From contig JABGXW010000029.1 of NCBI GenBank assembly GCA_018675575.1, positions 21,412 through 85,411 on the forward strand: DNA of 64,000 nt, given 5' to 3'. Source of the DNA: Bacteriovoracaceae bacterium. GTDB taxonomy: Bacteria > Bdellovibrionota > Bacteriovoracia > Bacteriovoracales > Bacteriovoracaceae. A program made the position numbers and the translations under genes. This document shows positions 5,521-30,783 of this stretch, in pieces. The notes below the pieces were generated by a model. The model did not search any database, was not told the DNA's origin, and saw only the letters and a program-made list of their open reading frames with translations. Position 1 is the stretch's first letter; each line of letters begins with the position of its first letter.

Positions 5521-6567
5521 TTAATTACTCTTTTTTGAAGTCATATATTTATTTATGAGTCTGATCCTTCTTGATAGCCCAATGACTTGTGAAAGAGGTA
5601 ATTTTTTTTTCATCAATTGTTTTATTAACAAATTATAGTTTTCTTCAATTGTCATTTTGGTCTTCTCATTTAAATTTTGGATTGAATACTTTTCAGGTGT
5701 TCTGAGGTAGTGCAGAGCGACATCCCTTAACTCAAACAAATCGTTGTCTATAAAATAGTGTACCATTTCTGGAAAGTTTTGAATATTTAATGAACTAATT
5801 GTCGTATACGATGTAATGTCCGCATTTGGTAGCTCATTTTTTAGCACTTTTATATTTCTCTCAATCTTTTCCCAGGCAATCCCGGGCCTAATATTCTGGG
5901 CATCTCCATTAATCCCGTCAATACTGATAGAAATTTGTAAATTATTAAACTTTTTTAGATTTTTGATATAGGAGGTTTTTATTGAACTTCCATTAGAATT
6001 AAACTCTAACCTAATATCTGTTCTTTTTAATCTAATTAATTCTTCTAAAAATTCTATTATTTCAGATTGTATAAATGGTTCTCCCCCTGCAATAGTAATT
6101 TTTTTTAATTGATTTAATAGCGGAAAAATATTTTTTTTAATATAGTTTGTATATGTGACAATAGTATTTTCACTACTCCACCTTGAGCTATACTCAGAAC
6201 TACATGTCAAACACTTCATATTACATAGGTTAGAAAATGAAAGGTCTACAGACTCTATTTCTTCTATAGGAGAAGAGGTTATATTGGTATTAATACTTTT
6301 AAATTCTTGTAAAAATACTGACTGTAAACTCTCACCCTTTTGAGTATTTTCTTTTAAAATACAAAATTCACATTGAGGGACAATTTCATCTTTTGACATT
6401 TTTTCTTTTATTAATTTAGATTTATATGAATTTAGAATATCAGCTAAGGGAATTTCATTAATTTCTCCCAAGCAATCACTGGCTTCATAACATGTATATA
6501 TTTTCCCATTCGGTGAAATGAGCACGCTCTTCCACGGCGCAGGGCAATAACTATTATTTATTTTCAT
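5521..6567 (-). CDS. Radical SAM enzyme with N-terminal Cys-rich twitch/SPASM-like module (paralogue 1)
   Basis: N-terminal CPAPW...GKIYTC...C...CEFC module, then the radical SAM triad NLCNMKCLTC (CxxxCxxC), then GGEPF. Confidence 0.7.
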   Translation of the reverse strand: MKINNSYCPAPWKSVLISPNGKIYTCYEASDCLGEINEIPLADILNSYKSKLIKEKMSKDEIVPQCEFCILKENTQKGESLQSVFLQEFKSINTNITSSPIEEIESVDLSFSNLCNMKCLTCSSEYSSRWSSENTIVTYTNYIKKNIFPLLNQLKKITIAGGEPFIQSEIIEFLEELIRLKRTDIRLEFNSNGSSIKTSYIKNLKKFNNLQISISIDGINGDAQNIRPGIAWEKIERNIKVLKNELPNADITSYTTISSLNIQNFPEMVHYFIDNDLFELRDVALHYLRTPEKYSIQNLNEKTKMTIEENYNLLIKQLMKKKLPLSQVIGLSRRIRLINKYMTSKKSN

Positions 6568-6676
6568 ATTTAATAATTTTAATCTATTTTTTAGGTTTAA
6601 TAAATATGATAAAGCCTATTAACTCACATTTCATCTAGAATATCTGTATAATAGCCTGAACGGATGGTGACAAAAG

Positions 6677-7765
6677 ATGAGTGTAAATGTCTATACTGAA
6701 TGGGATCCTCTTCAAGAAATAATTATTGGTAACGTAATAAATACCAAATTAAACTTTGTTATGGATTTTACCTTTAAGCTTTTTTACCATGAAAACATTA
6801 ATGATCAATTAATTAGAAATAATAAAAAACTGCAGCAAAGACTCATTATCCAGAGACAGGAAGATCTTGATAATTTAGCGAATATATTGAGTGATTTGGG
6901 TGTTAAAGTCAAAAGACCTACCATGTTGAATAGTCCATCTGACTTCATAACTCCTAACTTTAAAAGCAATTTACATCCTTCAGACAACCCTAGAGATTTA
7001 GTTCTTATCGTGGGAAATAAAATTATTGAGACCCCCGTCCTAGTTCGTCATAGATATTTTGAAACTGACTTATTGAAACCAATCTTTATGGATTACTTTA
7101 AAAATGGAGCGCACTGGATAAGTGCCCCCAAACCAACTTTAGTTGAGGAATCTTTTGACTATACCTATATTAAAAGTAATGACGCTAATAAACGCTGGGC
7201 GGATGTTAAAGAAGACGACGACAAATTAGAAATAATGTTTGATGCTGCACAATGCATGAAGTTTGGGAGGGATATTATAATGAATATCTCAACGAAAAAT
7301 CACGTATTAGGCGCTGAATGGTTAGAGAGAGAACTAGGCCCTGATTATAAATTACATAGAGTTAATTTAACAGATTATCACTTAGACGGAATGATGATGC
7401 CTCTGGCCCCTGGAAAACTTCTCATTAATCCTATTTCAATGGAAAAAAAGCTACACCTATTACCAGAAGAGCTTCAAAAATGGGATATCATCCATTGTGT
7501 TGATAAGGAAATCGCAACAACAGATGACGAAACTTTATTAATTGCTAGTGAAAATATCAGTGTCAATGTTTTACCGATAAACGAAAAGCAATGCATTGTA
7601 TTTAGTTCCACTGGTAGTGGATTATCTTCCATGAGAAAAAGTTTAGAAGAAAATGGTATCGAAGCAATACCTGTTAGACTTCGGCATTCTAGAGTCTTTG
7701 ACGGTGGCGTACATTGCTGCAGCCTTGATACTATTAGAAAAGGCAACCTTGAAACATATTTTTAA
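6677..7765 (+). CDS. Amidinotransferase (glycine amidinotransferase / StrB1 inosamine-phosphate amidinotransferase family)
   Basis: The C-terminal signature FDGGVHCCSLDTIRKGNLETYF matches the catalytic-Cys block GG-x-HC-x-T/S-x-D-x-R-R/K-G-x-L-x-x-Y of AGAT/StrB1/CyrA/SxtG-type enzymes. Size (362 aa) and the internal H-x-D (DYHLDG) block also fit. Confidence 0.8.
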   Translation: MSVNVYTEWDPLQEIIIGNVINTKLNFVMDFTFKLFYHENINDQLIRNNKKLQQRLIIQRQEDLDNLANILSDLGVKVKRPTMLNSPSDFITPNFKSNLHPSDNPRDLVLIVGNKIIETPVLVRHRYFETDLLKPIFMDYFKNGAHWISAPKPTLVEESFDYTYIKSNDANKRWADVKEDDDKLEIMFDAAQCMKFGRDIIMNISTKNHVLGAEWLERELGPDYKLHRVNLTDYHLDGMMMPLAPGKLLINPISMEKKLHLLPEELQKWDIIHCVDKEIATTDDETLLIASENISVNVLPINEKQCIVFSSTGSGLSSMRKSLEENGIEAIPVRLRHSRVFDGGVHCCSLDTIRKGNLETYF

Positions 7766-7783
7766 TACATCTGGATACCAAGT

Positions 7784-8929
7784 ATGAAAACTAACATCAA
7801 TTATATTGATGAGAAACTTAACGAAGCCAAAAATATTATAAATGAATTTGAAAAGTTTGGTTTTCAGAAAAATGGATTCTGCCTTGTACCATTCACAACA
7901 ATAATTCTGGAACCTAATGGAAATGTGGGGGTGTGTCGATTACATGGAACCGATAAAGCTATTGGAAGTTTAAATAATAACACTATTGAAGAGATATGGA
8001 ACGGTACTCATTTAAAGAAATGGCGAAGGGAATTTTTAGACGGGAAACCTGAGATTTGTAAAAATCAAATTAAAAATAAAAATTGTAACTTATGTATTGA
8101 AAATAATAAATTACTTAATTCTGTCGAGTTCAATGAAACTCAAACTACTCCTATTCAAAAATTAACAGCAAACTTCAATGGTTTTTGTAATTTAAAATGT
8201 ATAATGTGTGATGTGTGGACATTACCAAATGGTTACTATAATGAACAAAACTTCTGGGGTCCAGCACGAACAACAATTTTCCCTTTTTTAAAAGAAATAG
8301 ATATGCTTTCAGGGGAACCTTTTCTACAAGCTGACACTTATAAATTGATAAAAGAAGTAAGTAGGGTAAATACAAAATGTAAATGGTCAATTACAACCAA
8401 CGCCCATTGGAAACTTAATCAATCTATAAAAGGCCATCTTGACTTAATTGACATAAAGAATTTAATCATCTCTATAGATAGTGTTAATACAAATACCTAT
8501 TCAAATATTAGAAAAGGCGGAAAGCTAGATGTTGTATTGAAAAATGTAGAACACCTCTTGGATTATCAAGAGCAACGACTTAAAAACAATAAATCAAGTT
8601 TAAATATATATGTAAATTTTCTTGTTCAAAAAGAAAACTGGAATGAAATTTCTGACATGATTCAATACTGCATTTCGAATGAGATCATGCCATTCATTTC
8701 ATTTTGTGAAAGGCCAGAAGAATACAGCTTACTAGATTATGACGAAAAATTGAGAATTGAGATTCTCGAGTTCTATTTTTCAAATTTAACTAAAGTAGAA
8801 CTCTTCTTTAGTCTTAGAGTAATTAGACCACTAATTTTTTCTTTACCTGCAATTTTCAAAGCTGATTTTCTAACTAGACTAAATGACATGTCCTTCAATG
8901 ATACCTATCTCCCTGTAGTAAACTTCTAA
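7784..8929 (+). CDS. Radical SAM enzyme with N-terminal twitch/SPASM-like module (paralogue 2)
   Basis: FCLVPF...PNGNVGVCR...NTIEEIWN...C..C module, then GFCNLKCIMC (CxxxCxxC), GEPFLQ, TTNA-W. Collinear with paralogue 4. Confidence 0.7.
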   Translation: MKTNINYIDEKLNEAKNIINEFEKFGFQKNGFCLVPFTTIILEPNGNVGVCRLHGTDKAIGSLNNNTIEEIWNGTHLKKWRREFLDGKPEICKNQIKNKNCNLCIENNKLLNSVEFNETQTTPIQKLTANFNGFCNLKCIMCDVWTLPNGYYNEQNFWGPARTTIFPFLKEIDMLSGEPFLQADTYKLIKEVSRVNTKCKWSITTNAHWKLNQSIKGHLDLIDIKNLIISIDSVNTNTYSNIRKGGKLDVVLKNVEHLLDYQEQRLKNNKSSLNIYVNFLVQKENWNEISDMIQYCISNEIMPFISFCERPEEYSLLDYDEKLRIEILEFYFSNLTKVELFFSLRVIRPLIFSLPAIFKADFLTRLNDMSFNDTYLPVVNF

Positions 8930-8979: not shown

Positions 8980-10803
8980 ATGCTAATTTGGAGGTTTTTT
9001 TTGGATAAAAATAATAACATATTTTGCCTGGCCCCCTGGGTACATGCTCATGTAGATGTAGAAGGAAAGAGGGCCCTATGTGATTTCAGTGATCCTATAG
9101 AGGGTATCTGTAACAATTTATCTCTGAAAGAGTACTGGAATAGTCCTGAAATTAAAGAAAGAAGAGTCATGATGTTAAATGGTCAAGCACCAAAAGAATG
9201 TCATTCATGTTCTAAACGGAGAATTTCAACAGAACCTCATTGTGTAGAATTTAATAATCCATATAAATACCTTGTACCAACGATATTAAGAAATACCAAA
9301 GTTGACGGATCGACGTCCATGAAGCCATTCTATTATGATTATCGTTTCTCTAATATTTGCAACTTTAGTTGTAAGATGTGTTCAGCACCAAATTCTACAT
9401 TAATTGAAAATGAAACAAGAAAGTTTAATAATATAAATCCTAAACAACCTACGTTATATGAGAATAGAAAAGTTAATAATGAGAAAATATATTTACCTGA
9501 GTTTTTACAGAATATTGAAAAAGGACATGTTCAAAAAATATCCTGGGCCGGGGGAGAAACATTAATCACCCCAGAACACTGGGAGGTCATTAATAAGATA
9601 CTTAATCTTGATATGCAAAAAAAAATATGTCTATCATACAGCACTAATTTTAGTATTGAAAACTACAAAGGTACCAAAATCCTTGATATTCTCAAAGACT
9701 TTAAACATATATCTTATGAATTAAGTTTAGATGGAATTAAGGAGGTAGGTGAATTCATTAGATCCGGATTAAACTGGGAAACATTTTATACGAACTTTAA
9801 GAGTTTACCTATTCGTTCAAATCTCGACATCTCATTTGCTATTACGTTGACCATTCCTGGTATTCTCGATATCAAAAATCTCATCGATTTTCTACTAGAA
9901 GATCGACTTAAATATGTTCCTGTTTTTTGTATTGGAGATTATTCAACCGATGTCATGTCTCCCTTTATTCTTCCGAGACATCTTTATGATCAACTGCTCG
10001 ACAATTTCGAAAAGTTGGTAATAGAATACAATGACCCGTATCTTGATAATTTTATTGATTTGATCCATTCAATGAAAAATACGACAATCATTGAGGAATG
10101 TATCAATCTAGATATTAAAGATTTCATTAGTGCAAGAAAGTTTCATTCATTTAGAGAGCAATTAAATCCGCATCAAATAACATTAAATGAAATTTTCAAA
10201 ATTAAATCACCAGATATTTATAAGTGGTGGTTAAAAAGTGATGATGAACTAATAAAAAGCAGTCTTAGCCTAGTTGAATACAGACACATACTTCACAATA
10301 AAGAATGGGATGATAAACATTCTTATTCCAGCGAAACTTTTCAAGAGAAAGTAATTCTTACGACCACATTTAATTTCACGGGAAACTTAGAAACTTCCCC
10401 TAAGCTATTCTATGGTACAAACTTAATTCGTGAGATTACAGACCCTGTTGAGTATCTAAATAAATTATCAAGGCATATTAATAAAGAAGACAGAGTGTCT
10501 CTGATAGATGCTACTGGGAATATATTCAGTTCATGGCTAAATCGAAAAAACTTAAATTCTTATCAAAATAAAATTATCCTATGGCGTTTGATAAACCTTC
10601 CTGCCGATGAGTGGGATCGGAAATTCCCAAATTTAATTATTTTATCTACAAATTATCTTTCCCCGATCTCTTTCATTCTTCGAAATAAAAATGTAGACAA
10701 TAGATTAATATCTATCATTTGTAAGTTTGAATTTTTGGTTAGCTTCCTTAATCCTGTAATCTCGCTACACTTCAGAGTTCTTTTCAAAAGAAGGGACGAT
10801 TGA
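8980..10803 (+). CDS. Radical SAM enzyme with N-terminal twitch/SPASM-like module plus about 200-aa C-terminal extension of unknown function (paralogue 3)
   Basis: FCLAPW...GKRALC...ECHSC module, NICNFSCKMC triad, WAGGETL. The start is uncertain: there is no SD before ATG 8980, and an upstream ATG at 8940 is one T out of frame across a T8 tract. Confidence 0.65.
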   Translation: MLIWRFFLDKNNNIFCLAPWVHAHVDVEGKRALCDFSDPIEGICNNLSLKEYWNSPEIKERRVMMLNGQAPKECHSCSKRRISTEPHCVEFNNPYKYLVPTILRNTKVDGSTSMKPFYYDYRFSNICNFSCKMCSAPNSTLIENETRKFNNINPKQPTLYENRKVNNEKIYLPEFLQNIEKGHVQKISWAGGETLITPEHWEVINKILNLDMQKKICLSYSTNFSIENYKGTKILDILKDFKHISYELSLDGIKEVGEFIRSGLNWETFYTNFKSLPIRSNLDISFAITLTIPGILDIKNLIDFLLEDRLKYVPVFCIGDYSTDVMSPFILPRHLYDQLLDNFEKLVIEYNDPYLDNFIDLIHSMKNTTIIEECINLDIKDFISARKFHSFREQLNPHQITLNEIFKIKSPDIYKWWLKSDDELIKSSLSLVEYRHILHNKEWDDKHSYSSETFQEKVILTTTFNFTGNLETSPKLFYGTNLIREITDPVEYLNKLSRHINKEDRVSLIDATGNIFSSWLNRKNLNSYQNKIILWRLINLPADEWDRKFPNLIILSTNYLSPISFILRNKNVDNRLISIICKFEFLVSFLNPVISLHFRVLFKRRDD

Positions 10804-11871
10804 GCTGGCTGCAGTAATTAATCTTGAGAACTTACCCTCTGTAAGTAAGTCTAGCATCTTAAAATATTTTATTTGTAAATTATTTGGAAATGTTTCCACA
10901 AGTGCTCTTAATACCCGATGAGATATCAACAATTCACGTTGGGACATTTTTGAAAAATAATACTTAAGTATTTTTTTTCGTTGAGCCAGACCTAGTGTCG
11001 AGGGAGATAAATTCTCAGGGCTGTAAACATATTGAACAAATGGAAATAGATTATTTTCTTCACAGAAATTAAGCATTTCTATTATCTGGAAAGCATTTTC
11101 CCGTTGGATAGAAAAATTAATTTCCAAGTGAAAATCTTTTTCTTTTTGAAAAAGTTTAAGGTCGTCAATTGTTTTAAGTGCATTTCCCAATTTACCTGGA
11201 GCGCGAATAGATTCATAGGTCTTAGGATCTACTGTATCTAAACTAACTGATATACGGTTAATTTTAATTTTTCTCAAATGAGACTTTATTGATTCAGAAA
11301 GAGACCATTGTGCGTTTGTCGTAAAGCGCCAAGACAATGCGGGATTCGAGTCTGCTGCCAGGTTAATTATTTTATATAAATCTGGTTGCAGAAATGGTTC
11401 TCCCGCAAGAGGATCGATTTGTATTAAATTTGGAATGATATGCTTTTTTAAATGTTCCCAGAATCCATCTATTTTATCATATTCATGATTAGGCATGGCC
11501 CATATATTACAAAATGGGCATTGAAGGTTACAAAATCCGTTAATGTCTGGCGATAATCTTAATATTGGAGTTTTTACGACCTCCGAGGCGTCAATGTAGG
11601 GCAATAAATCAAGATTAGAGTGTAGCTTATTACAAGAGTTGTGATTGATATATTCTTTGCATGTTACAATATTTCCAGTTAAAAACTCCAGCCTCCAGTC
11701 ACGAAATTTTTTATTGTTCCAAATCTCTTCAATTGTATTTTCGTGAATATTCCCAAGAACATGACCAATACCCAATTCCCTACATGAGCCTACATGTCCA
11801 TTGGGATTTAGAATCAAACTTGCAAAAGGTACTGGACAAAATACCTTGGGTAGTGATTTACCATTTTTCAT
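10765..11871 (-). CDS. Radical SAM enzyme with N-terminal twitch/SPASM-like module (paralogue 4)
   Basis: FCPVPF...PNGHVGSCR...NTIEEIWN module, GFCNLQCPFC triad, GEPFLQ, TTNAQW. Its 3-prime end overlaps paralogue 3 by 39 nt (convergent). Confidence 0.7.
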   Translation of the reverse strand: MKNGKSLPKVFCPVPFASLILNPNGHVGSCRELGIGHVLGNIHENTIEEIWNNKKFRDWRLEFLTGNIVTCKEYINHNSCNKLHSNLDLLPYIDASEVVKTPILRLSPDINGFCNLQCPFCNIWAMPNHEYDKIDGFWEHLKKHIIPNLIQIDPLAGEPFLQPDLYKIINLAADSNPALSWRFTTNAQWSLSESIKSHLRKIKINRISVSLDTVDPKTYESIRAPGKLGNALKTIDDLKLFQKEKDFHLEINFSIQRENAFQIIEMLNFCEENNLFPFVQYVYSPENLSPSTLGLAQRKKILKYYFSKMSQRELLISHRVLRALVETFPNNLQIKYFKMLDLLTEGKFSRLITAASSIVPSFEKNSEV

Positions 11872-11956
11872 ATTAGATCCATAATCATTTGGTCATTGTT
11901 ATTACTCAGCCTGTGATATATTATATCATTAGTCACATGAAATAGAGGTAATAATT

Positions 11957-12247
11957 ATGACTTCATATGCCAATTCAGATATGGTTATTAAAACTGTAGA
12001 CGATATTGTTACTAGAAAAAATGATAATGGTAGTATCATACTTATGAAAATGAACGACTCAGATAATTTTTTCAAGATTGACGGCATAGCATCAATGATC
12101 TGGCGCGAATCTGTAGACAATGGTCGACAACTTGGTGAAATATTTAAGCTAGTAATTGACGGATATGAAGTTGAGGCCAGCACATTGGAAAAAGATATAG
12201 ACAAATTATTACAAGATCTCAGATCCCACAAACTCATTGTTGAATAA
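11957..12247 (+). CDS. PqqD-family protein (RiPP-recognition-element-like peptide chaperone)
   Basis: 96 aa. The pattern DNGSIILMKM..DNFFKIDGIASMIWRE..NGRQLGEIFKLVIDGYEV....LEKDIDKLLQDLRSHKLIVE follows the PqqD family profile (LN-x-x-a-x-x-iW, y-v-x-x-x-x-x-e-x-Dv-x-x-fl-x-x-L-x-x-x-x-li). Good SD (AGAGGT) 8 nt upstream. Confidence 0.65.
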   Translation: MTSYANSDMVIKTVDDIVTRKNDNGSIILMKMNDSDNFFKIDGIASMIWRESVDNGRQLGEIFKLVIDGYEVEASTLEKDIDKLLQDLRSHKLIVE

Positions 12248-13241
12248 ATCTTAAAACATGATTAAGTGTCTCCTTCTCGTTACTTCCATATATAGTATAG
12301 AACTTCGAATTACTTATTAAATTAAACGCCGCCCAGATTCTCATTAGAAATATCTTAATTTTGGTCCAAAAATCCTTAATCCCAAATTCCCAAAATAATT
12401 CTAGAACCTGAGGTGTGCCGACCCCTAAAATAAAATATAAGAATAAGTCTTGATAAATTTCTATACGTTTTGATTTACCTAAAGAGCTTGTTTTACTGTC
12501 CCTATGTAGAAAAATAATATCTTCTCGTTTTTTTTTATCTTGATTTTTATCGTAAAAAAAATCTGCCCTGAGTAAATACTTTACATCATGATTAGTGCGG
12601 ACAAAATTTGACGTATATCCTTTATCATATTTTAACAATTTATTTTGATCTTTAAATCCTAAACGAAGTGGAAAGTGGAACCTATCCTGTGCGGAAACGA
12701 GAGTTATGTCGTCTGATGAATATTTCAAATTATTCTTTGAATTTAATAAATTTAAACATAGTGTTGATTTTCCAATACCAGAAGCCCCGACAAGAATGAA
12801 GTTCTTTTTCTCATTATATACACACATGGAATGAAGTCTGTGAATTCCGTCTATATCTAACATTTTCCCAACTCTAGACAATGTGGCAAGATAGATTATT
12901 TCTCTAGTTAAAATATCATTCTTTGAAAAGATTTTAATTGCTTCACTATCGAAATTTATTTTGAGAAGAAGTTCATCGTAATAATTAATATATCTACAGT
13001 TTTTATATTCATAGAATACTTTCCCATTATATGTTTTAATATTTTGAGATTGATTGTTAAATCTTAAAAGGTCAGGTTTGTCATAAATATGATCAATTTT
13101 AACATGAACAAGATTTGGTTTTCCTCCATCCGCGAATTCAAAGCTTTTAAAGTCAAATGACACATTCTCCAGAAGGCCATTAACAGGAGAATTGATACTG
13201 ACCATTTTACCTAAAAACAAAAAAAATTTACTTGATAACAT
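12234..13241 (-). CDS. HPr-kinase-related P-loop protein (HprK C-terminal-domain-like kinase)
   Basis: The P-loop LVGASGIGKSTL sits in the context typical of the HprK/P C-terminal domain (GxSGxGKS). The N-terminal half has no recognisable motif. Convergent with the PqqD gene, overlapping it by 14 nt. Confidence 0.55.
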   Translation of the reverse strand: MLSSKFFLFLGKMVSINSPVNGLLENVSFDFKSFEFADGGKPNLVHVKIDHIYDKPDLLRFNNQSQNIKTYNGKVFYEYKNCRYINYYDELLLKINFDSEAIKIFSKNDILTREIIYLATLSRVGKMLDIDGIHRLHSMCVYNEKKNFILVGASGIGKSTLCLNLLNSKNNLKYSSDDITLVSAQDRFHFPLRLGFKDQNKLLKYDKGYTSNFVRTNHDVKYLLRADFFYDKNQDKKKREDIIFLHRDSKTSSLGKSKRIEIYQDLFLYFILGVGTPQVLELFWEFGIKDFWTKIKIFLMRIWAAFNLISNSKFYTIYGSNEKETLNHVLRFIQQ

Positions 13242-14112
13242 GGTATTTCCTAGATAAATAAATCACTATCCCGATAAAAATGGCAATCCCATATGCTATA
13301 TGAATAAGTGGAAAGGTTAAAAAGGCAAGAAAAAAACAACCTATCGACGCGGACGCTCTTGCCAAAGAAAAGGAAAATAAAAAATCTAATGTTAGATAAA
13401 TAATTATTACAGGAGCAATATCAGTTGGAAAAATTAAACCATAAATTAATAGCAAAACAAAAAGGAAAGGAAGAAGGTAAATTATCTTTTTCGGAGCAAA
13501 ATTTACAAGAACATGCTTACCACGCGAAAATGCATAATAATAAATTTTTTTTATTACTTTTATATACGATTTACCAATTGTCCTAGTTACAATTGCCTCT
13601 GGATGATACCAGACATCATTTTTATCAACTCTAGATAAAAACTCATTCTCCTCATTGGGATAGAATCCAGGCTTAAAACCATTATTCTTTAAAAAAAAAT
13701 CCTTATTTATTACCATATTACATAATATTAACTCTCTTTCAGTTGATAATCTGGGACACCCAAGAGAAGAGTATCTAGCTCGAGAACTTTGAAAGGCAAA
13801 CCAAGATTTAAAAATATATGAAAAGAAATATGAATTAAAATTTTCTGATCTTATTAAAGCGGGGCCACCAACGACATTTACCCTATTATTATTAATAAAC
13901 TCTTTGTATTTTGCTAAGATATTTTTTGATAATTCACAATCGTCATCTAGAAATAGTAACCAATCGGAATTTGCCTGCCTAGCTGCCTTATTTCTTTGTT
14001 CTGAGGGATCATTCCCCTCCATACAAATAATTTCATCAACCAGATGAATTTTTTTATTTTTTTTCAGCACAACATTTGATATATTTTTACATGCAATTAT
14101 AATCGTAAACAT
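13228..14112 (-). CDS. Family 2 glycosyltransferase with C-terminal transmembrane segments
   Basis: MFTIIIACKN start typical of GT2, PSEQRN, DxD block LFLDDDCEL, hydrophobic C-terminus. I moved the start to ATG 14112, which removes the divergent overlap with the protease gene. The ORF track extends to 14160. Confidence 0.75.
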   Translation of the reverse strand: MFTIIIACKNISNVVLKKNKKIHLVDEIICMEGNDPSEQRNKAARQANSDWLLFLDDDCELSKNILAKYKEFINNNRVNVVGGPALIRSENFNSYFFSYIFKSWFAFQSSRARYSSLGCPRLSTERELILCNMVINKDFFLKNNGFKPGFYPNEENEFLSRVDKNDVWYHPEAIVTRTIGKSYIKVIKKIYYYAFSRGKHVLVNFAPKKIIYLLPFLFVLLLIYGLIFPTDIAPVIIIYLTLDFLFSFSLARASASIGCFFLAFLTFPLIHIAYGIAIFIGIVIYLSRKYHVIK

Positions 14113-14145
14113 AGTTAAATTATATGAGATTAGGTCAATTAAGTC

Positions 14146-15603
14146 GTGATTAAAAATCATTTTTATTTATATTCTCTATGCTATATTTTTTTTTTATCAC
14201 TAACTTCTGGTTGTTTGGTAAATAATGGTTCACAGTCCCTACTTCCAGCGAAATATGACCTTAGAGAATCTAATATTATCACTCTGCCAAAGAAACAGGC
14301 ATGGGGTACCTGCTGGGCACATTCCGCGATCTCATCAATTGAAAGTAACTTTTTATCAAAGCAAAAAGATAAGTCACTAGCAGAGATAAATTTCTCAGAG
14401 TACCATATGGATAAATTTAATGGATTTAATCGTGATGGGATTAAAGGTGAAGTTCTAAATACTGAAAAAAGCGGGCAAGGAATTGATTTCATAGGTTCAA
14501 ATCTCGACGATAGGCAGTCTGGTCTACTGGTCCATCAAGGTGGTGATATGAGAATAGCTACCGCTTACATTGCAAATAATGGAGGAGTAGTTAATGAAAA
14601 AAAATCTCATTTTATTTCTAACTCCCATCAAGATCACGACGTATTCGGGAACACCTCAATTACTGGGATCAAAAGAAGAGATATGTATCGTTATTATTTT
14701 TCACGAGATATTCAATTTCTAACCTTATTTGGCACAAACAGAGAAAAAAGAATCAAAATCAAAAAGGCCATAATTAATCACGGTGCCGTTTCAAGTGGAC
14801 AGGTTCAAACTAATAAACCTTTCGGTTTCTTTAACAATATGGAGGTTCATTTTCACAATGGTAATAAAGAAATTGACCACGCAATCAGCCTCATTGGATG
14901 GAATGATCACCTAGAAGTTGATGGTCATGTTGGAGCATGGCTAGTAAAAGATAGCTTCCATCAAAGTGAAACGACTGGTAAATATATCAAATACTTTTAT
15001 ATTTTATACGATGATATTCATGTAGCAAAAAACCCATTCCACGGCGGCACATCTTTTGCTAATACTCAATTAGAAAAGTTTAATTCCATTTACACTCATT
15101 CTCTTCATGGATGGAGATACACAAGTACAAATCTAAAAATTAAAGCAGTTGCCAGTAAGTATCTAATATCGCGGGAGAAAAAGATCGCGGGAGTTGGCAT
15201 CTATTCTACTCAAGAAAATTCAAGATATGTGCTAACAATACATTCATCATCACTAGATGGTCCTATTGTTTTTACAAAAGTATCAAAAGTTAAATATCCT
15301 GGATTTCACTTTGTTTCAGCCAACTCCCTAAGCATAAAGTCTGGAATATACTTTATAAAACTGGCTCTAAAACGACCAGCCTATCCATATGATGCCTCAT
15401 CTACAGTTGATGTATTATTAAGTGAGACTACTAAAAAAATACAAGTTAACTCCTCTGCCAACAAGGGAGAAAGTTATTATTTAATTGATGGGCAATGGAA
15501 AGACTTTAGCTCGTACAAAGATAAGCATAACCTTCAAAGAAAAAACAGTCATGCTATGAAATACGATACTGCCAATATCTCAATGAATTTGTATACTCAT
15601 TAA
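14146..15603 (+). CDS. Papain-family (C1) cysteine peptidase, predicted lipoprotein
   Basis: Lipobox LTSG-C after a hydrophobic leader. Active-site Cys block QAWGTCWAHSA (papain Q...CGSCWAFS). His block DHAISLIGWND. C-terminal region of about 200 aa is beta-rich. GTG start. Confidence 0.75.
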   Translation: MIKNHFYLYSLCYIFFLSLTSGCLVNNGSQSLLPAKYDLRESNIITLPKKQAWGTCWAHSAISSIESNFLSKQKDKSLAEINFSEYHMDKFNGFNRDGIKGEVLNTEKSGQGIDFIGSNLDDRQSGLLVHQGGDMRIATAYIANNGGVVNEKKSHFISNSHQDHDVFGNTSITGIKRRDMYRYYFSRDIQFLTLFGTNREKRIKIKKAIINHGAVSSGQVQTNKPFGFFNNMEVHFHNGNKEIDHAISLIGWNDHLEVDGHVGAWLVKDSFHQSETTGKYIKYFYILYDDIHVAKNPFHGGTSFANTQLEKFNSIYTHSLHGWRYTSTNLKIKAVASKYLISREKKIAGVGIYSTQENSRYVLTIHSSSLDGPIVFTKVSKVKYPGFHFVSANSLSIKSGIYFIKLALKRPAYPYDASSTVDVLLSETTKKIQVNSSANKGESYYLIDGQWKDFSSYKDKHNLQRKNSHAMKYDTANISMNLYTH

Positions 15604-17405
15604 TCACCAAAAAAAGATTTTAATCTTTCATAGTTATCTAATACAGGATCAGAAAATGACCTATGTTTTTTGGCATCTTTATAGTGAGAATAAGCTTTAT
15701 CATAATCTTTCTTATGAAAGTAATATTCACCTAATTTATAATTATATTTGAACAAGTTTTTATTGGTTATTGCAACTAGTCTTGTTTTTTGATAGTTAAT
15801 TTTATGTCTCGTTTCGTCTTTTATAATAAACTCATCTTCTAATTTATCCACAAGATACTGAGATAAAATTGTATCATTAGTATCAATCGCAATTTTTAAC
15901 ACCGTATCCAAAGTTTCGTTATGAAATTTAAGTGGATTGTCTTTATAAAACTTCAGAAACTCTTCTTTTTGAAATTTGTCATCGCATTTATCTATAATTT
16001 CAGCATAATATTCGAACATCTTATTTTTTCTAATTTCATTAGGGTGATTTAGGTAAAAAGAGACATTATTTTTTACTTTTATATAATTTTTTTCTTTCAT
16101 GTGAGCGGTTATTAGAGAAACTCTTACGTGATAATTTTCAGGGTTTTTATTAAGTATCGCCTGTAGAATAGTAGAGTCTTTTTGCCATCTGTTGATATTA
16201 AAAATCGTCGTAAATAAAAATGTGATACCAAATGCTATTAATAGGCCATCCCTAACTTTTTTATCCCTAATTTTAAAAAGGGCCCATACCAACATGAAGC
16301 TGTAAGAAACAGAGCCAAAATACATATAACGCGACGAGGTTACACTTATTGCCTGAAAAGGAAACGGTATTAATCCAGAGAATGGTAACAAAGTAACAAT
16401 AAAAGCAAAAACTGAGAAATAATTTTTTAATATCTTCTTATTTTTTAATACTGTCGATATTTTAAAAATTCCAACAAAGAAGGTCATCCTTAGAATAAAA
16501 TCTATTGAATTTATATTATATAGTGATCGGTCCAAGAATGATTTCGCACTGCCAAACACAGTGTTAAATGGAAATAAAAAATGATTAATGTAATATGAAT
16601 AAGCATGGAAAGATAAAAAGAGTCTATTTTGTACACCTATTTCATTACTTCCAAGCTCGTGGATACTCTTCAATTGAAAAAAACTATAAGTAGCTGAAAT
16701 AGAAAGTAATACCAGAGAGAATGCAAAAACGTATTTGATTTTAATTTTATAGAGCATTAAATCAATTAAAATAATGATAATAGGCAAGGAAATTGCGTCT
16801 TGTTTAGACAAAAGTGCAAAGATTAAATACAAAACTGTATTCAATGAATAATATTTTTGATTTTTCTCTCTCCATTTTAAATGATTTAGAACACATAGAA
16901 GAGAAAAGAACAAGCTCAGCACACCTCTTAACCCAGATAGCCAAACCACTGTTTCTACATTTACTGGAAATATCAAAAAAGTACCAGCTACGAAAGCAGG
17001 TAAGTATTTCAGATCACTTATATGTTTAGTTTTAACTAGTTGTTCTAATAATTTATAAATGATTATAGAATTTAAGCTGTGAAAAATAATATTAATTAAA
17101 TGTAGAATTATTTGCTGATGCTCTAGTTTGAAGTTGCTTGTTAGGGACCAAATAAGATTGGGTATTGGTGTTTTAAAACTAGTCACTATCTGAATAATTG
17201 AAGAAAAGGTACTACCCATTAATAGAGGATTTTTAAAAATATAATGATCATCATCAAAAATAAATTTATCAAAAAAGATTGAAGGTTGATATAATAACAC
17301 TCCAACAATTAAATATATTGAAAACAGGCAAACTCTATTCATATTTATACGGGAAAAAATATCTTTGAAATTTTTAATTAGATGTATTTTATCTATATTG
17401 TCCAT
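15600..17405 (-). CDS. GT-C fold membrane glycosyltransferase, TMTC/PMT_2-like, with C-terminal TPR domain
   Basis: About 10 TM segments. The first-loop acidic motif KFIFDDDHYIFKNPLL resembles the F-x-F/Y-DD...N motif of TMTC/PMT-type O-mannosyltransferases. The C-terminal 170 aa are TPR-like (YYFHKKDYDKAYSHYKDAKK). I moved the start to ATG 17405 (MDNIDKI) to avoid overlapping the upstream pilin-like gene. Confidence 0.65.
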   Translation of the reverse strand: MDNIDKIHLIKNFKDIFSRINMNRVCLFSIYLIVGVLLYQPSIFFDKFIFDDDHYIFKNPLLMGSTFSSIIQIVTSFKTPIPNLIWSLTSNFKLEHQQIILHLINIIFHSLNSIIIYKLLEQLVKTKHISDLKYLPAFVAGTFLIFPVNVETVVWLSGLRGVLSLFFSLLCVLNHLKWREKNQKYYSLNTVLYLIFALLSKQDAISLPIIIILIDLMLYKIKIKYVFAFSLVLLSISATYSFFQLKSIHELGSNEIGVQNRLFLSFHAYSYYINHFLFPFNTVFGSAKSFLDRSLYNINSIDFILRMTFFVGIFKISTVLKNKKILKNYFSVFAFIVTLLPFSGLIPFPFQAISVTSSRYMYFGSVSYSFMLVWALFKIRDKKVRDGLLIAFGITFLFTTIFNINRWQKDSTILQAILNKNPENYHVRVSLITAHMKEKNYIKVKNNVSFYLNHPNEIRKNKMFEYYAEIIDKCDDKFQKEEFLKFYKDNPLKFHNETLDTVLKIAIDTNDTILSQYLVDKLEDEFIIKDETRHKINYQKTRLVAITNKNLFKYNYKLGEYYFHKKDYDKAYSHYKDAKKHRSFSDPVLDNYERLKSFFGD

Positions 17406-17439
17406 GGTCGTCCGTGACAAGCATAATTTTTTATTTATT

Positions 17440-19242
17440 CTAAGGTAGTAGAAAAGGGTCCGCAGCTCCACCAATTTGAGGTTTACAACAAAGGATTCTG
17501 TTTGGAATATTTGCAGAAGTGGTCCGCATCCCTCTCATCACCCCTCGTCGGCACTTCCAATACCTTAAACCATTAACATTACTTGTATAACCATATTGGT
17601 AACAACTACTATTATCAAAGTTACCCCCCTCATACTTTAGATGGATTGTGTCTGATCTGCAGTAGCTATTAGAACATACTTGCGTACAATTATTGGCAGC
17701 ATCACAACGGGTATCAAGCGCAATTTTGCTAATACAGTCCACAAGTACTCTACCGGAGACGGGTCCTGAACCAGTAGGACTCCAACTGACATTTGTTACA
17801 ACTTTATTACCAACAGGGACAGCTGAGCAAGCACCAGTATAAATTCTGCTTATATTTCCCATGGTATAATCGTTAATAACATTTTTTAGATTAGTCAAGG
17901 CCCATGAACTGTTTACGCTGGCGAGTATACTCTCTGTGATGGCCTGTTTCTGCTGATTATTAAATGTTCCAGCAAAATGATCAAAAACCCATTTTTGCGT
18001 AACTGCGTAATTAGCACTATGCCCATTACAGTTCCCGCCAACATTACAGTCAGGGATTGATCCAAAAATTCTTATTGTTCCACCAGTAGTTAAATTATTG
18101 CCAACAGTTACATTATTGCCAACGATCGCATCTGTTCCAACATTTAAAGTGGTGTCCAATGCGGTTGCGAGTGTAGCATGCAAGGTACCAGTAACATCTG
18201 TATTACCTACGATTGTTGTTGCTCCGGCTATACCAACTGTACCTGTAATAGCTGTATTGCCTACTATCCCCATAGTTCCTGTAACAGTGGTATTACCAAC
18301 AATTGCTGTAGGACCAGTTATATTAACTGGTCCTACAAAGGTAGATGGCTGGGCCCCTGCTACCCCCGTACCAACACCAAATGGACCTTCATCAATCAAC
18401 ACTGGTCCAAAAAAATTAGCCGAAGTTGGAGTTCCGGCCAAACCTACGTTCATCATACCATTGAATTGGGTAGCGATATCCCCGACAGTAGTTATTGATG
18501 GGATAGCAGGGTCGTTTGTTCGAATTGTAATATTTGTACAGAAAGGTGGAGCTGTGTAGTCACCTCCTATGGATGCACATGAAGCTGTTACAAAACTTTC
18601 TTCATCGGAGGCACACTCCAAGAGTACATTATCAGCAACCCGCCTAACCAATACCAGCTGAACTTCTTCTTCCGAAGTCATATTACCATAAGTATTAGTT
18701 GCGGTGTTACCAGCCTTTGTATAAGTAATTGTTAATGTTGCGTTTCCTTGTTGTCTATTTTCAATGACGGGTCCAACAGGATTTAAAGTAAAAGCATAAG
18801 GGGCACCCACATCCGACCAATCGTTCAATACAATACTTGTAATATCTAACCTATTTGTGATCCCAAGAAAATGCATCCCTCTACCATCGCCATTAGGTCC
18901 AGAAGTTACACTTGTCGAGGCTACCTCCGAATTAGCTGCTATGCTTCTCCAAATATCAGTCAACACCAAGTCGTCACCATCAGCTAGTGTATTTGTTCCA
19001 AATGGTACTGCTCCAACAGACCGCTTACAAGCATCGAGATCCTGTAAAGCTCCTCGAACCTTTCGGATATTTTCAAAACGCCGCTCACGCATAACGGAAT
19101 AACCTTGATTTTTCGTCATGTTATCCATCACTGACATGGTTCCCAGAGAAATAACTCCCAACATGCCAGAGGCCACGAGCACCTCAACAAGAGAAAACCC
19201 CGACTCATTGTAATACTTAGGTATGGTGAAAAAGTTTTTCAT
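17440..19242 (-). CDS. Large type IV pilin-like protein (prepilin N-methylation signal, beta-solenoid-like Gly/Thr/Val repeats, Cys-rich C-terminal region)
   Basis: The leader MKNFFTIPKYYNESG is followed by FSLVEVLVASGMLGVISLG, giving G(-1), F(+1), E(+5) and the hydrophobic alpha1 helix. aa 265-395 hold GNTxVTGT-type repeats. There are 16 Cys residues, 12 of them in aa 399-586. SD AGGA lies 8 nt before the ATG. Confidence 0.7.
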   Translation of the reverse strand: MKNFFTIPKYYNESGFSLVEVLVASGMLGVISLGTMSVMDNMTKNQGYSVMRERRFENIRKVRGALQDLDACKRSVGAVPFGTNTLADGDDLVLTDIWRSIAANSEVASTSVTSGPNGDGRGMHFLGITNRLDITSIVLNDWSDVGAPYAFTLNPVGPVIENRQQGNATLTITYTKAGNTATNTYGNMTSEEEVQLVLVRRVADNVLLECASDEESFVTASCASIGGDYTAPPFCTNITIRTNDPAIPSITTVGDIATQFNGMMNVGLAGTPTSANFFGPVLIDEGPFGVGTGVAGAQPSTFVGPVNITGPTAIVGNTTVTGTMGIVGNTAITGTVGIAGATTIVGNTDVTGTLHATLATALDTTLNVGTDAIVGNNVTVGNNLTTGGTIRIFGSIPDCNVGGNCNGHSANYAVTQKWVFDHFAGTFNNQQKQAITESILASVNSSWALTNLKNVINDYTMGNISRIYTGACSAVPVGNKVVTNVSWSPTGSGPVSGRVLVDCISKIALDTRCDAANNCTQVCSNSYCRSDTIHLKYEGGNFDNSSCYQYGYTSNVNGLRYWKCRRGVMRGMRTTSANIPNRILCCKPQIGGAADPFLLP

Positions 19243-30706: not shown

Positions 30707-30783
30707 TGGTCGGAGCGACTGGATTCGAACCAGCGACCCCCTGCTCCCAAAGCAGGTGCGCTACCAAACTGCGCTACGCTCCG
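30707..30783 (-). tRNA. tRNA-Pro (anticodon UGG), CCA encoded
   Basis: Reverse complement: CGGAGCG TA GCGC AGTTTGGTA GCGC A CCTGC TTTGGGA GCAGG GGGTC GCTGG TTCGAAT CCAGT CGCTCCG A CCA. This gives a 77-nt cloverleaf with a 7-bp acceptor stem, TTCGAAT T-loop and anticodon loop TT-TGG-GA. Confidence 0.9.

Follow-up and report, generated by a model that had tools for sequence, protein, structure and literature searches.

A lasso-type RRE and an HprK/PEPCK-fold kinase in a conserved tailoring cluster of a Bacteriovoracaceae bacterium

The two convergent genes at 11957-13241 of the window (the whole 64-kb stretch of Bacteriovoracaceae DNA analyzed here) are best explained as components of a single conserved tailoring cluster, about 35-40 kb in size, and not as a self-contained pair. 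One encodes a PqqD-family RRE, the other a phosphotransferase of the HprK/PEPCK fold. We assign a probability of roughly 45% to the reading that the cluster is a tailoring pathway with an RRE-bound peptide or small-protein substrate, which would be decorated by the kinase and a membrane GT2 glycosyltransferase. The features on which the argument draws are the following.

1-2961, plus strand: 3' portion of a gene for a type I PKS, AT-KR-DH, whose complete product on the contig has 1137 aa (contig gene list)
2958-4649, minus strand: NodU/TobZ-type O-carbamoyltransferase (Pfam Carbam_trans_N and Carbam_trans_C)
4650-5510, minus strand: ABC transporter ATPase of the Wzt/TagH (glycan export) type (NCBIfam)
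5521-6567, minus strand: N-terminal-twitch radical SAM (rSAM) enzyme (N_Twi_rSAM, 239.7 bits against a cut-off of 170)
6677-7765, plus strand: amidinotransferase, 362 aa (phmmer against the PDB)
7784-8929, plus strand: rSAM enzyme with N-terminal SPASM/twitch domain (N_Twi_rSAM 85.7, below the cut-off of 170)
8980-10803, plus strand: N-terminal-twitch rSAM enzyme, 607 aa, with an uncharacterized C-terminal extension (N_Twi_rSAM, 266.1 bits against 170)
10765-11871, minus strand: rSAM enzyme with N-terminal SPASM/twitch domain (Pfam SPASM at residues 12-65, and Radical_SAM)
11872-11956, no strand: divergent rSAM/PqqD intergenic region, 85 nt, no credible ORF
11957-12247, plus strand: discrete, lasso-B1-like PqqD-family RRE, 96 aa (PF05402, TbiB1 match, AF2 model)
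12234-12247, no strand: 14-nt overlap of the convergent PqqD and kinase stop regions, tcattgttgaataa (read from the sequence)
12234-13241, minus strand: P-loop phosphotransferase of the PEPCK/HPr-kinase fold, 335 aa, MBT7608732.1, locus tag HN576_03180 (family alignment, profile, AF2/Foldseek)
13228-14160, minus strand: GT2 glycosyltransferase with C-terminal transmembrane helices (Pfam Glycos_transf_2)
15600-17474, minus strand: polytopic membrane protein with a C-terminal helical-repeat region, 624 aa (conserved in the related locus L001)
20112-21164, plus strand: HGSNAT-type membrane acyltransferase (Pfam PF07786)
25609-27552, plus strand: rSAM/SPASM enzyme fused to a DegT-family sugar aminotransferase, 647 aa (Pfam and NCBIfam)
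27530-28561, plus strand: Zn-dependent alcohol dehydrogenase (Zn-ADH) paired with the rSAM-DegT fusion (NCBIfam tdh and scyllo-inosose dehydrogenase-like models)

The convergent genes and the cluster around them

The 96-aa ORF is preceded by an AGAGG ribosome-binding site. The profile search that the initial annotation had proposed as a check on its PqqD assignment gives 40.2 bits for PF05402 (Pfam PqqD) against a cut-off of 23.4 (E 4e-10), covering profile positions 9-67 of 67, and TbiB1 is its closest match by sequence in the PDB (E 1.3e-4). In the AF2 model (pLDDT 91.5), a three-stranded sheet (residues 17-21, 27-31, and 34-41) is followed by three helices (44-54, 59-69, and 74-90), which is the RRE fold, and the model superposes on the lasso RREs TbiB1 and TfuB1 with a TM of 0.75-0.88 and an rmsd of 1.4-1.7 Å (Foldseek). 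The protein is a lasso-B1-type RRE, and the earlier proposal of a PqqD-type RRE holds. The only known job of RRE domains is to hold the leader of a ribosomal peptide, and we know of no RRE or PqqD domain that works without a peptide.

Comparison with L001, in which PqqD is 65% and the kinase 50% identical to the window proteins, yields a dN/dS of about 0.12 for the PqqD gene at a dS of about 2 (synonymous sites near saturation), and on these figures the gene is under purifying selection. A 102-aa antisense ORF (ATGA overlap with the kinase stop) was rejected because stop codons interrupt it in L001; hence, the plus strand is the coding strand. The PqqD gene forms a single-gene unit. Word-indexed protein searches with the window PqqD or a two-sequence profile returned only the query, its L001 ortholog, and one relative of 40% identity, and a metagenome DNA scan with PqqD patterns found no organism besides the source organism. 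The window PqqD is no nearer to the PqqD proteins of Elusimicrobia than to the PqqD family at large, a point against the peptide reading.

The convergence and the 14-nt overlap had been described with exact coordinates. L001 matches the window gene for gene and repeats the overlap, at 7068-7081, with an identical gene order; the arrangement is not due to chance because order and overlap recur there. All four rSAM genes previously noted beside the pair encode N-terminal SPASM/twitch domains. The one at 10765-11871 (100.8 bits for N_Twi_rSAM, NF033640, below the cut-off of 170) is divergent from the PqqD gene here and in L001, and the intergenic region offers just two ORFs, of 18 and 22 aa, which L001 does not conserve. 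The 607-aa rSAM protein is 53% identical to L001 8490-10298.

Much of the cluster is devoted to sugar or small-molecule chemistry. The amidinotransferase, 79% identical to its L001 ortholog, matches HsvA (6.5e-58), AGAT (2e-52), StrB1 (7e-52), and SxtG (2e-49), all over the full length. Galactan Wzt/RfbE and teichoic-acid TagH are the best NCBIfam matches of the ABC ATPase, and a KS gene lies next to the PKS gene on its left (contig gene list). The rSAM-DegT fusion shares 68% identity with its counterpart in L001 and 53% with that in L002, and its pairing with the Zn-ADH is conserved in both loci. The acyltransferase is 40% identical to L001 3991-5043. The 624-aa membrane protein shares 39% identity with L001 7-987 and bears a weak resemblance to the gene that lies upstream of the kinase in L022; it has no Pfam, NCBIfam, or PDB match. 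The pilin-like protein, named as a candidate substrate in the initial annotation, was not linked to the RRE by any of the analyses. The L001 sequence ends inside a homolog of the TPR membrane gene that adjoins the gene of the pilin-like protein.

This gene content might instead reflect a pathway that makes solely a glycan or glycolipid and involves no ribosomal peptide. The glycan, anchored to a polyketide or linked to a lipid, would be built and exported, and its amino sugar or aminocyclitol guanidinylated, carbamoylated, and acylated; the kinase and GT2 would act on a sugar or a polyprenyl-linked intermediate, and PqqD would be an accessory or stabilizing rSAM subunit. The true amidinotransferase related to StrB1, HsvA, and SxtG speaks for such a pathway, as do the NodU/TobZ-type carbamoyltransferase, the Wzt/TagH-type ATPase, the HGSNAT-type acyltransferase, and the PKS genes. 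The amidinotransferase, DegT, NodU/TobZ, and Wzt/TagH families are associated with sugars or small amines, which counts against the peptide reading. In the streptomycin pathway, a phosphorylated inosamine is needed before StrB1 acts. Moreover, the rSAM/SPASM-DegT fusion with its Zn-ADH recalls the BtrN/BtrS/NeoA logic, in which an alcohol is converted into a ketone and then an amine. The window PqqD, however, keeps the full RRE fold and is under purifying selection, for a domain with no known peptide-free role. We regard a pure glycan pathway as an unlikely, albeit serious, explanation.

The kinase family and its glycosyltransferase partner

The sequence of the 335-aa protein is only weakly HPr-kinase-like, with 14.3 bits for Pfam Hpr_kinase_C (PF07475) against 33.3, 14.0 for TIGR00679 against 240, and 21.5 for HprK_rel_A (TIGR04352) against 200, the last match being limited to the P-loop. 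PF07475 likewise matches none of 27 diverse family members at E<=0.01. With a profile of the kinase family, however, HPr kinase/phosphorylase provides the four best PDB matches through the aligned block HG..G.SGxGKS..L..DD, and the AF2 model (pLDDT 86) retrieves ATP-PEPCK (E 5e-9, TMq 0.6) and then HprK (E 1.5e-3) in Foldseek. H134, R135, H137, G157, K158, S176, P191, R193, and G195 are invariant in the family alignment, and H137, the P-loop G-ASGIGKS, and S176-D177-D178 are conserved as HprK-type motifs. The label "HPr-kinase-like" is thus correct with respect to fold and motifs but not at the level of the curated HprK models, all of which stay below cut-off. The protein is a phosphotransferase of the HprK/PEPCK fold that looks catalytically intact. 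PEPCK is a small-molecule kinase, and its rank as the best whole-chain structural match of the kinase model counts in favor of the glycan pathway.

The kinase belongs to a large, wholly unannotated family separate from the known RiPP kinases. It comprises 637 representative clusters at E<=1e-30, sampled members are all named "hypothetical," and a literature search for "HprK-related kinase" found nothing. One member, P0067, is fused to a B12-rSAM. An apparent 680-aa kinase fusion (P0024) was set aside: no domain was recognized in its N-terminal half, which appears to stem from a start called too far upstream.

A related-locus search with a narrower kinase alignment returned 20 loci, mostly from Elusimicrobia. 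Among 27 independent kinase loci, a membrane GT2 lies directly upstream of the kinase in 19. In the window, the GT2 overlaps the kinase start by 14 nt, and the two genes are probably translationally coupled; the GT2 family alignment contains DDD and NEEN motifs and a hydrophobic C-terminus. Among ORFs 3' of the kinase in relatives, only GT4 shadow frames are conserved. A PqqD gene occurs within 10 kb of the kinase in 10 of the 27 loci, and these ten represent two PqqD lineages that are unalignable by BLASTP and at least two phyla. We infer that this frequency is far above chance for a domain with about one copy per genome. In the remaining 17 loci, neither PqqD nor the peptide described below lies within 10 kb, which weighs against the peptide reading; that the family resides there in GT2/GT4/ABC2 loci without PqqD fits the glycan pathway.

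The initial annotation treated PqqD and kinase as a functional pair; this was not confirmed, since the usual neighbor of the kinase is the membrane GT2. The two genes might even belong to unrelated systems that merely abut, and their opposite strands and the single-gene organization of PqqD, in addition to the GT2 being the usual kinase partner, are compatible with this. Against it, L001 retains the juxtaposition and the 14-nt overlap despite a dS of about 2, and PqqD ORFs recur near the kinase family in the 10 loci from at least two phyla, which makes mere abutment very improbable.

A leader-like peptide in relatives and the search for a substrate

Seven of the eight Elusimicrobia loci that have both the kinase family and PqqD also encode a conserved peptide of 36-51 aa. 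It reads KKYxKPxLxKHG followed by VLSIVEGD and thus carries a lasso/LPP-type [Y/W]xxPxL..HG leader; its tail codons show synonymous changes only. LPP are linear polyphosphorylated peptides (lppA-K-B-S-D-N; Popov et al., Nat Commun 2026; PMC13381572). The peptide motif matches YxxP or [Y/W]xxPx[L/V/I], the recognition sequence of lasso and LPP RREs (PMC12710340; PMC13381572). A literature search on the tail sequence found nothing. Because this leader-like peptide is conserved in seven of eight PqqD loci, the peptide link is real in these relatives, which argues against a pure glycan pathway. The same holds for L025, with the row ABC2, ABC ATPase, PqqD, peptide, two GT4, GT2, and kinase. Since this row combines PqqD and the peptide although the 9.7 kb on the upstream side of the kinase contain no rSAM gene, PqqD has to be more than an rSAM subunit in this locus. 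On the other side, the PqqD-adjacent rSAM of Elusimicrobia has its closest match in AprD4, an aminoglycoside diol-dehydratase (E 4e-60), a point in favor of the glycan pathway.

Alternatively, the RRE might recognize a leader-like docking tail on a pathway protein and thereby assemble an enzyme complex; the "[Y/W]xxPxL..HGVLSIVEGD" of relatives would then be an aminotransferase-associated tail. In L021, no stop codon separates the peptide from DegT, whose reading frame it continues, and in L006, L010, L011, and L013 it begins a few bases past the DegT stop. The peptide also has almost no core, because it ends two or three residues past the LPP leader cleavage position. Yet in L015 and L025 it has a longer, variable C-terminal part and lies away from the DegT gene, and the separate peptide ORFs of L006, L010, L013, and L025 have their own RBS-like sequence upstream (L011 has no clear one). 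Furthermore, no such tail could be identified in any window protein: the [YW]xxPx[LI] occurrences in the kinase, the 607-aa rSAM protein, and the rSAM-DegT fusion are either not conserved or inside the SPASM fold. We consider a docking tail improbable.

The peptide context suggested for the pair is therefore borne out in Elusimicrobia but not in the window, whose 64 kb encode no precursor. The initial annotation had seen none close to the two genes, and conserved-ORF, motif, and HMM scans extend this to the entire stretch; the missing precursor is a further point for the glycan pathway. Apart from the PqqD gene, every small ORF that L001 conserves with the window proved to be a shadow frame within a larger gene. 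Free-standing ORFs of at least 18 aa throughout the window include nothing peptide-like, and scans with an HMM of the Elusimicrobia peptide and a relaxed [YWF]xxPx[LIVM] motif gave nothing credible. Proteins of 144, 219, and 467 aa were rejected as long precursors, being a membrane protein, an anchored protein, and a lipoprotein, respectively, and absent from L001. Consistent with the earlier remark that a lasso cyclase/protease pair is lacking, neither a lasso cyclase nor a B2 protease is found among the Pfam and NCBIfam matches of the genes from 1 to 30,340. Neither Pfam nor an HMM built from the S24-like proteins found in L002, L007, and L008 detected an SpI-like leader peptidase in the window, and the lack of a cytoplasmic leader peptidase (SpI-like or lasso B2) weighs against the peptide reading.

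The best substrate candidate is a 142-aa Peptidase_S74-domain protein, a lead drawn from two gene lists. Outside the window but on the same contig, about 5.1-5.6 kb to the left of base 1, the gene for this protein stands immediately before one for a further rSAM/SPASM enzyme (248 aa). A 172-aa Peptidase_S74 protein is encoded by the gene adjacent to that of P0161, which is 40% identical to the window PqqD and, apart from the L001 ortholog, the single relative found for this PqqD type. A regular expression for the S74 cleavage motif had no match across the collected loci, and no literature linking Peptidase_S74 with radical SAM enzymes was found.

The proposed pathway and its place among known systems

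In the pathway that we favor, the RRE would bind a peptide or small protein, encoded outside the 64-kb window, through its [Y/W]xxP-type leader and present this substrate to the SPASM/twitch rSAM enzymes and to the kinase/GT2 pair. The latter would add phosphate and a sugar to a hydroxyl, paralleling the pairs of HprK-like kinase and NTP transferase of paeninodin-type lasso peptides and LPP. The sugar part might be elaborated by the rSAM-DegT/ADH pair, the amidinotransferase, the carbamoyltransferase, and the acyltransferase, and the product exported via the Wzt/TagH-like ABC system. A bolder version, which we hold to be doubtful, is an undescribed hybrid class of pathway in which a lasso-type RRE, a PEPCK/HprK-fold kinase, and a membrane GT2 yield a phosphoglycosylated, rSAM-tailored peptide in glycan loci. 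Its substrates, both of an unprecedented type, would be the "leader-only" 36-41-aa peptide ending in VLSIVEGD in Elusimicrobia and a self-cutting S74 small protein in Bacteriovoracaceae, whose C-terminal Peptidase_S74 domain would cut itself off and free the modified N-terminal peptide without a leader peptidase.

Modules of an RRE and an HprK-like kinase that phosphorylate ribosomal peptides were shown only in 2016-2026 (paeninodin, pseudomycoidin, LPP), and to our knowledge all these cases come from Bacillota or Pseudomonadota. What is new here is a separate, much larger unannotated kinase family tied to a membrane GT2, which recurs beside RREs in Elusimicrobia and Bacteriovoracaceae and is accompanied in the Elusimicrobia kinase/RRE loci by a new precursor-like peptide under strong conservation. 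Should peptides be the substrate of the kinase/GT2 pair, "polysaccharide" loci would conceal far more phosphoglycosylated RiPPs than has been assumed; should the substrate be a sugar, this would be the first RRE to operate in a pathway without a peptide.

Among known systems, the HPr-rel-A (TIGR04352) and SynChlorMet (TIGR04355, ScmE/ScmF) cassettes have a similar parts list of HprK-related P-loop protein, PqqD-like protein, and rSAM/SPASM enzymes. Membership, which had been considered earlier, does not hold, as the kinase and rSAM proteins score far below the cut-offs: the kinase reaches 21.5 against 200 for HPr-rel-A and 18.8 against 200 for SynChlorMet, and the rSAM proteins reach 12.5-51.4 against 400 for the latter. 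Among the matches listed, the PqqD protein has none to the cassette-specific PqqD models. Both cassettes are, as far as we know, experimentally uncharacterized. Mycofactocin (MftB RRE, MftC rSAM/SPASM, MftF GT2) offers a like combination, its membrane-associated GT2 using a peptide-derived product as substrate. Among NCBIfam models, MftF ranks first for the kinase-adjacent GT2 of L006 (57.6 bits) and matches the window GT2 weakly. However, all scores are below the cut-offs, there is no MftA-like peptide, and mycofactocin has no kinase.

The enzymes of aminoglycoside and aminocyclitol pathways (BtrN/BtrS, NeoA, StrB1, TobZ, AprD4) match the cluster by family, namely in the rSAM with auxiliary cluster plus DegT, the Zn-ADH, the amidinotransferase, and the NodU/TobZ carbamoyltransferase, but none reaches an equivalog cut-off. 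We know of no aminoglycoside pathway that uses an RRE or an HprK-fold kinase. Published work describes fusions of RREs with carbamoyltransferases and with GT2 enzymes, which speaks for the pathway that we favor.

Lasso clusters of the paeninodin/pseudomycoidin type combine a kinase with a nucleotidyltransferase, and their HprK-like kinase phosphorylates a precursor Ser (PMC13381572). The window RRE is structurally closest to the lasso B1 proteins TbiB1 and TfuB1; in contrast to these clusters, the window has no lasso cyclase (Asn-synthase-like) or B2 cysteine protease among the genes from 1 to 30,340, and no lasso precursor.

The closest published system is LPP (2026), although membership fails for it as it does for the paeninodin-type lasso clusters and the TIGRFAM cassettes. 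The window lacks an SpI-like (S24/S26) leader peptidase and, within 64 kb, a precursor with the LPP motif YxxPxVLxHQxIxFETxxS (PMC13381572). It has a membrane GT2 instead of an NTP transferase and a Wzt/TagH-type ATPase instead of an MsbA-like pump, its kinase fails Pfam Hpr_kinase_C, and it stems from Bacteriovoracaceae, whereas LPP are from Bacillota. Beyond the LPP parts, the window has five rSAM genes and encodes an amidinotransferase, a carbamoyltransferase, and a PKS. LPP clusters, in turn, sit in glycosyltransferase-rich polysaccharide/capsule loci (PMC13381572), and their YxxPxVLxHQ resembles the YxxPxLxKHG of the Elusimicrobia peptides. LPP clusters have an HprK-like kinase, a description that the window kinase fits by motif and fold only. 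Common to LPP and the window are a discrete PqqD-type RRE, a nucleotide-sugar-type transferase adjoining the kinase, a glycosyltransferase-rich polysaccharide setting, an exporter, and a layout without lasso cyclase.

PqqD-type protein and convergent kinase

11957-12247 (+), PqqD-family RRE, 96 aa (ORF call, Pfam PqqD)
12234-13241 (-), P-loop kinase-like protein, 335 aa (family profile, AF2 model)
13228-14160 (-), GT2, with a 14-nt overlap at the start of the kinase gene

The assignment of the 96-aa ORF to the PqqD type in the initial annotation is borne out by the Pfam PqqD profile (40.2 bits; cut-off 23.4), and an AGAGG ribosome-binding site belongs to this ORF. The protein model can be overlaid on two lasso RREs, TbiB1 and TfuB1 (TM 0.75-0.88, rmsd 1.4-1.7 Å), whose structures were both solved with leader peptides; TbiB1 is also the best PDB sequence match (E 1.3e-4). 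The previously noted 14-nt convergent overlap with the kinase gene (tcattgttgaataa, read from the sequence) is real and recurs in L001, a metagenomic relative with an orthologous cluster, where both genes are present and the PqqD protein is 65% identical (dN/dS ~0.12). Besides L001, the sole other relative of this PqqD found is P0161 (40% identity). The four adjoining rSAM genes likewise stand, each with an N-terminal SPASM/twitch domain, and two of the proteins reach the NCBIfam N_Twi_rSAM cut-off. A 102-aa antisense ORF, seemingly coupled to the kinase stop via an ATGA overlap, was rejected because stop codons interrupt its L001 counterpart.

The kinase had been described as HPr-kinase-like, which holds for fold and profile but not for the curated model Hpr_kinase_C (14.3 bits; cut-off 33.3). 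Scores of 21.5 with HprK_rel_A and 18.8 with HprK_rel_B (cut-off 200 for each) speak against the suggested link to the HPr-rel-A system and the SynChlorMet cassette, and the curated-model matches are confined to the P-loop. In a family alignment built from eleven word-indexed homologs, H134, R135, H137, G157, K158, S176, P191, R193, and G195 are invariant. The four best PDB matches of its profile are HPr kinase/phosphorylase, with HG..G.SGxGKS..L..DD aligned. The AF2 model (pLDDT 86) is matched across both domains by ATP-dependent PEPCK (E 5e-9, TMq ~0.6) and more weakly by HprK. Given the low curated scores, the profile matches to HprK and the model match to PEPCK, the protein is placed in the PEPCK/HprK kinase fold but outside all named families. 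Its own family is large: 637 representative clusters match in an exhaustive profile search at E<=1e-30, almost all of them 320-360 aa long, and every sampled member is named 'hypothetical'. One 880-aa member from an ENA metagenome (P0067) fuses a B12-binding radical SAM enzyme to a full-length kinase, a Rosetta-stone link to rSAM chemistry. Residues 53-58 in the N-terminal domain read YDKPDL, a YxxPxL-like string that is probably due to chance, since the Tyr is not kept in L001 or other family members.

Kinase loci and a precursor-like peptide in relatives

We compared 27 independent kinase loci, namely the window together with six obtained by exact look-up and twenty by scanning genomes; most come from Elusimicrobia, with some from Omnitrophota and 'Deltaproteobacteria'. 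A GT2 gene lies immediately upstream of the kinase in 19 of them; these GT2s are ~310-350 aa long, carry the motifs DDD and NEEN and have membrane helices at the C-terminus. The surroundings are of glycan type, with GT4 and GT9 glycosyltransferases, ABC2/Wzt-like exporters, rSAM enzymes and DegT aminotransferases. In L022 (435-12730 for the whole stretch described here), six consecutive rSAM genes (SPASM-type and B12-type) stand beside the kinase, and the row is followed by a 522-aa relative of the window's 15600-17474 protein, the kinase, an ABC2 permease with ATPase, GT9 and SAM synthetase. A PqqD-family ORF occurs within 10 kb of the kinase at 10 loci. BLASTP does not align PqqDs of the window type with those of the Elusimicrobia type; the two are kin at family level only, so the association spans two PqqD lineages. 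Three loci with no PqqD within reach of the kinase encode small S24/S26-like peptidases with SGDSMxP: L002 7000-7368 (-), L007 7265-7711 (+) and L008 4349-4795 (+).

Comparison of free-standing small ORFs among these loci picked out a Lys-rich peptide family of 36-51 aa with the leader motif [Y/W]xxPxL..HG:

L006, 4845-4970 (-), GGAG-type ribosome-binding site; sequence MNMAPKKKNSSNKPSAAKKGKKKYETPDLVKHGVLSIVEGD
L010, 5762-5884 (+), GGAG-type site; tail nearly identical to L006
L011, 5558-5665 (-), tail nearly identical
L013, 5317-5439 (-), GGAG-type site; tail nearly identical
L021, about 6242-6355 (-), tail nearly identical
L015, 5998-6141 (+), variant with longer C-terminus
L025, 6451-6606 (+), GGAG-type site; variant with longer C-terminus

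Five loci share HGVLSIVEGD, and every codon difference in the KHGVLSIVEGD tail is synonymous. The gene order is PqqD, AprD4-like rSAM, DegT, peptide, GT4; in L025 the row reads ABC2, ATPase, PqqD, peptide, two GT4, GT2, kinase, and the 9.7 kb upstream are free of rSAM genes. No stop separates the peptide of L021 from the DegT aminotransferase, with which it shares a reading frame (6242-7492, -); a natural fusion, a docking tail and an assembly error are possible explanations. The motif agrees with YxxP, the recognition sequence of lasso RREs (PMC12710340), and with YxxPxVLxHQ of the precursors of linear polyphosphorylated peptides (LPPs; PMC13381572). An NCBIfam lasso-precursor model gives sub-threshold matches to the peptides, and a literature search for the tail sequence found no match. 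The family is confined to PqqD-containing kinase loci and present in seven of the eight from Elusimicrobia. Because a conserved peptide with a recognition motif of published type recurs this regularly, predicting a RiPP at these loci is well founded.

The window cluster and its possible substrate

Kept in L001, and in part in L002, are the four rSAM genes, PqqD, kinase and GT2 and those entries below that are marked as conserved; the remaining entries are further features of the region:

2958-4649, carbamoyltransferase (conserved with L001)
4650-5510, Wzt/TagH-like ATPase (conserved with L001)
6677-7765, true amidinotransferase (conserved with L001; matches HsvA, AGAT, StrB1, SxtG; E 1e-49 to 1e-58)
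14146-15603 (+), lipoprotein with papain-family C1 peptidase and lectin-like domains, between GT2 and membrane protein genes (no counterpart in the L001 stretch compared)
15600-17474, polytopic membrane protein, 624 aa (conserved with L001)
17440-19242 (-), pilin-like protein, 600 aa (35-nt overlap with the gene of the 624-aa membrane protein)
20112-21164, HGSNAT-type acyltransferase (conserved with L001)
25609-27552 (+), rSAM/SPASM-DegT aminotransferase fusion (conserved in L001, L002)
27530-28561 (+), Zn-ADH, overlapping the fusion gene (pair kept in L001, L002)
28562-30340 (-), flavin-dependent enzyme, 592 aa, weakly like CmlS-type halogenase and geranylgeranyl reductases (right edge)
30707-30783, tRNA-Pro gene, marking the right edge with a GC-skew shift

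BtrN, BtrS and NeoA form an alcohol-ketone-amine route of aminocyclitol biosynthesis, which the rSAM/SPASM-DegT fusion and Zn-ADH recall. The pilin-like protein has an unusually long class III signal peptide (MKNFFTIPKYYNESG|FSLVE) containing FxxPxY; it also has fibre-like repeats rich in Thr and Gly (IVGNTxVTG), and its C-terminus is rich in Cys.

No precursor had been visible beside the PqqD gene, and this extends to the full 64 kb: free-standing ORFs of at least 18 aa yield none that convinces, and the Elusimicrobia peptide HMM and relaxed motif scans return shadow-frame matches only. Between positions 1 and 22,000, the PqqD gene is the only small ORF conserved with L001; intergenic gaps within the cluster measure just 50-190 nt. 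The main rival to a peptide reading, which we regard as rather unlikely, is that the locus serves a glycan or glycolipid pathway only, with a PqqD protein whose peptide partner was lost or never existed. Four observations favour it: several cluster enzymes are small-molecule in character, the whole-chain kinase match is PEPCK-like, PqqD is absent within 10 kb at 17 of the 27 kinase loci, and the rSAM beside the Elusimicrobia PqqD is AprD4-like.

A candidate substrate outside the window comes from gene lists. Left of the window, the 325,826-bp contig of this Bacteriovoracaceae MAG carries PKS genes (AT-KR-DH, KS), GT4 and a 248-aa rSAM/SPASM gene, directly upstream of which, ~5.1-5.6 kb to the left of the first window base, lies a 142-aa Peptidase_S74-domain gene. 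P0161 is flanked by a divergent 363-aa gene and, on its other side, by a co-directional 172-aa Peptidase_S74 gene. A small gene that adjoins an RRE in one case and an rSAM/SPASM gene in the other stands where RiPP substrates are classically found. These S74 proteins, known from gene lists, are candidate self-cleaving substrates and as such no more than a lead.

Comparison with known systems

In paeninodin-type and LPP systems, a precursor Ser is polyphosphorylated by a kinase, and the clusters sit in capsule loci (PMC13381572); RRE fusions to carbamoyltransferases and GT2 enzymes are reported in the literature. The most economical reading, to which we give a tentative probability of about 0.45, is that the RRE would serve a peptide or small protein whose gene lies beyond the window, and that the kinase/GT2 pair would correspond to the pairs of kinase and NTP transferase in paeninodin-type lasso and LPP systems. 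The peptide and glycan readings can be merged in a glycopeptide with an elaborately tailored sugar.

The kinase family with its GT2 coupling and the Elusimicrobia peptide family are undescribed elements, as is the possible S74-domain substrate. In membership tests the locus falls outside the HPr-rel-A system, the SynChlorMet cassette, the paeninodin-type lasso clusters and the LPP clusters, and it shares with all four the logic of an RRE, an HprK-fold kinase and a sugar or nucleotide transferase.
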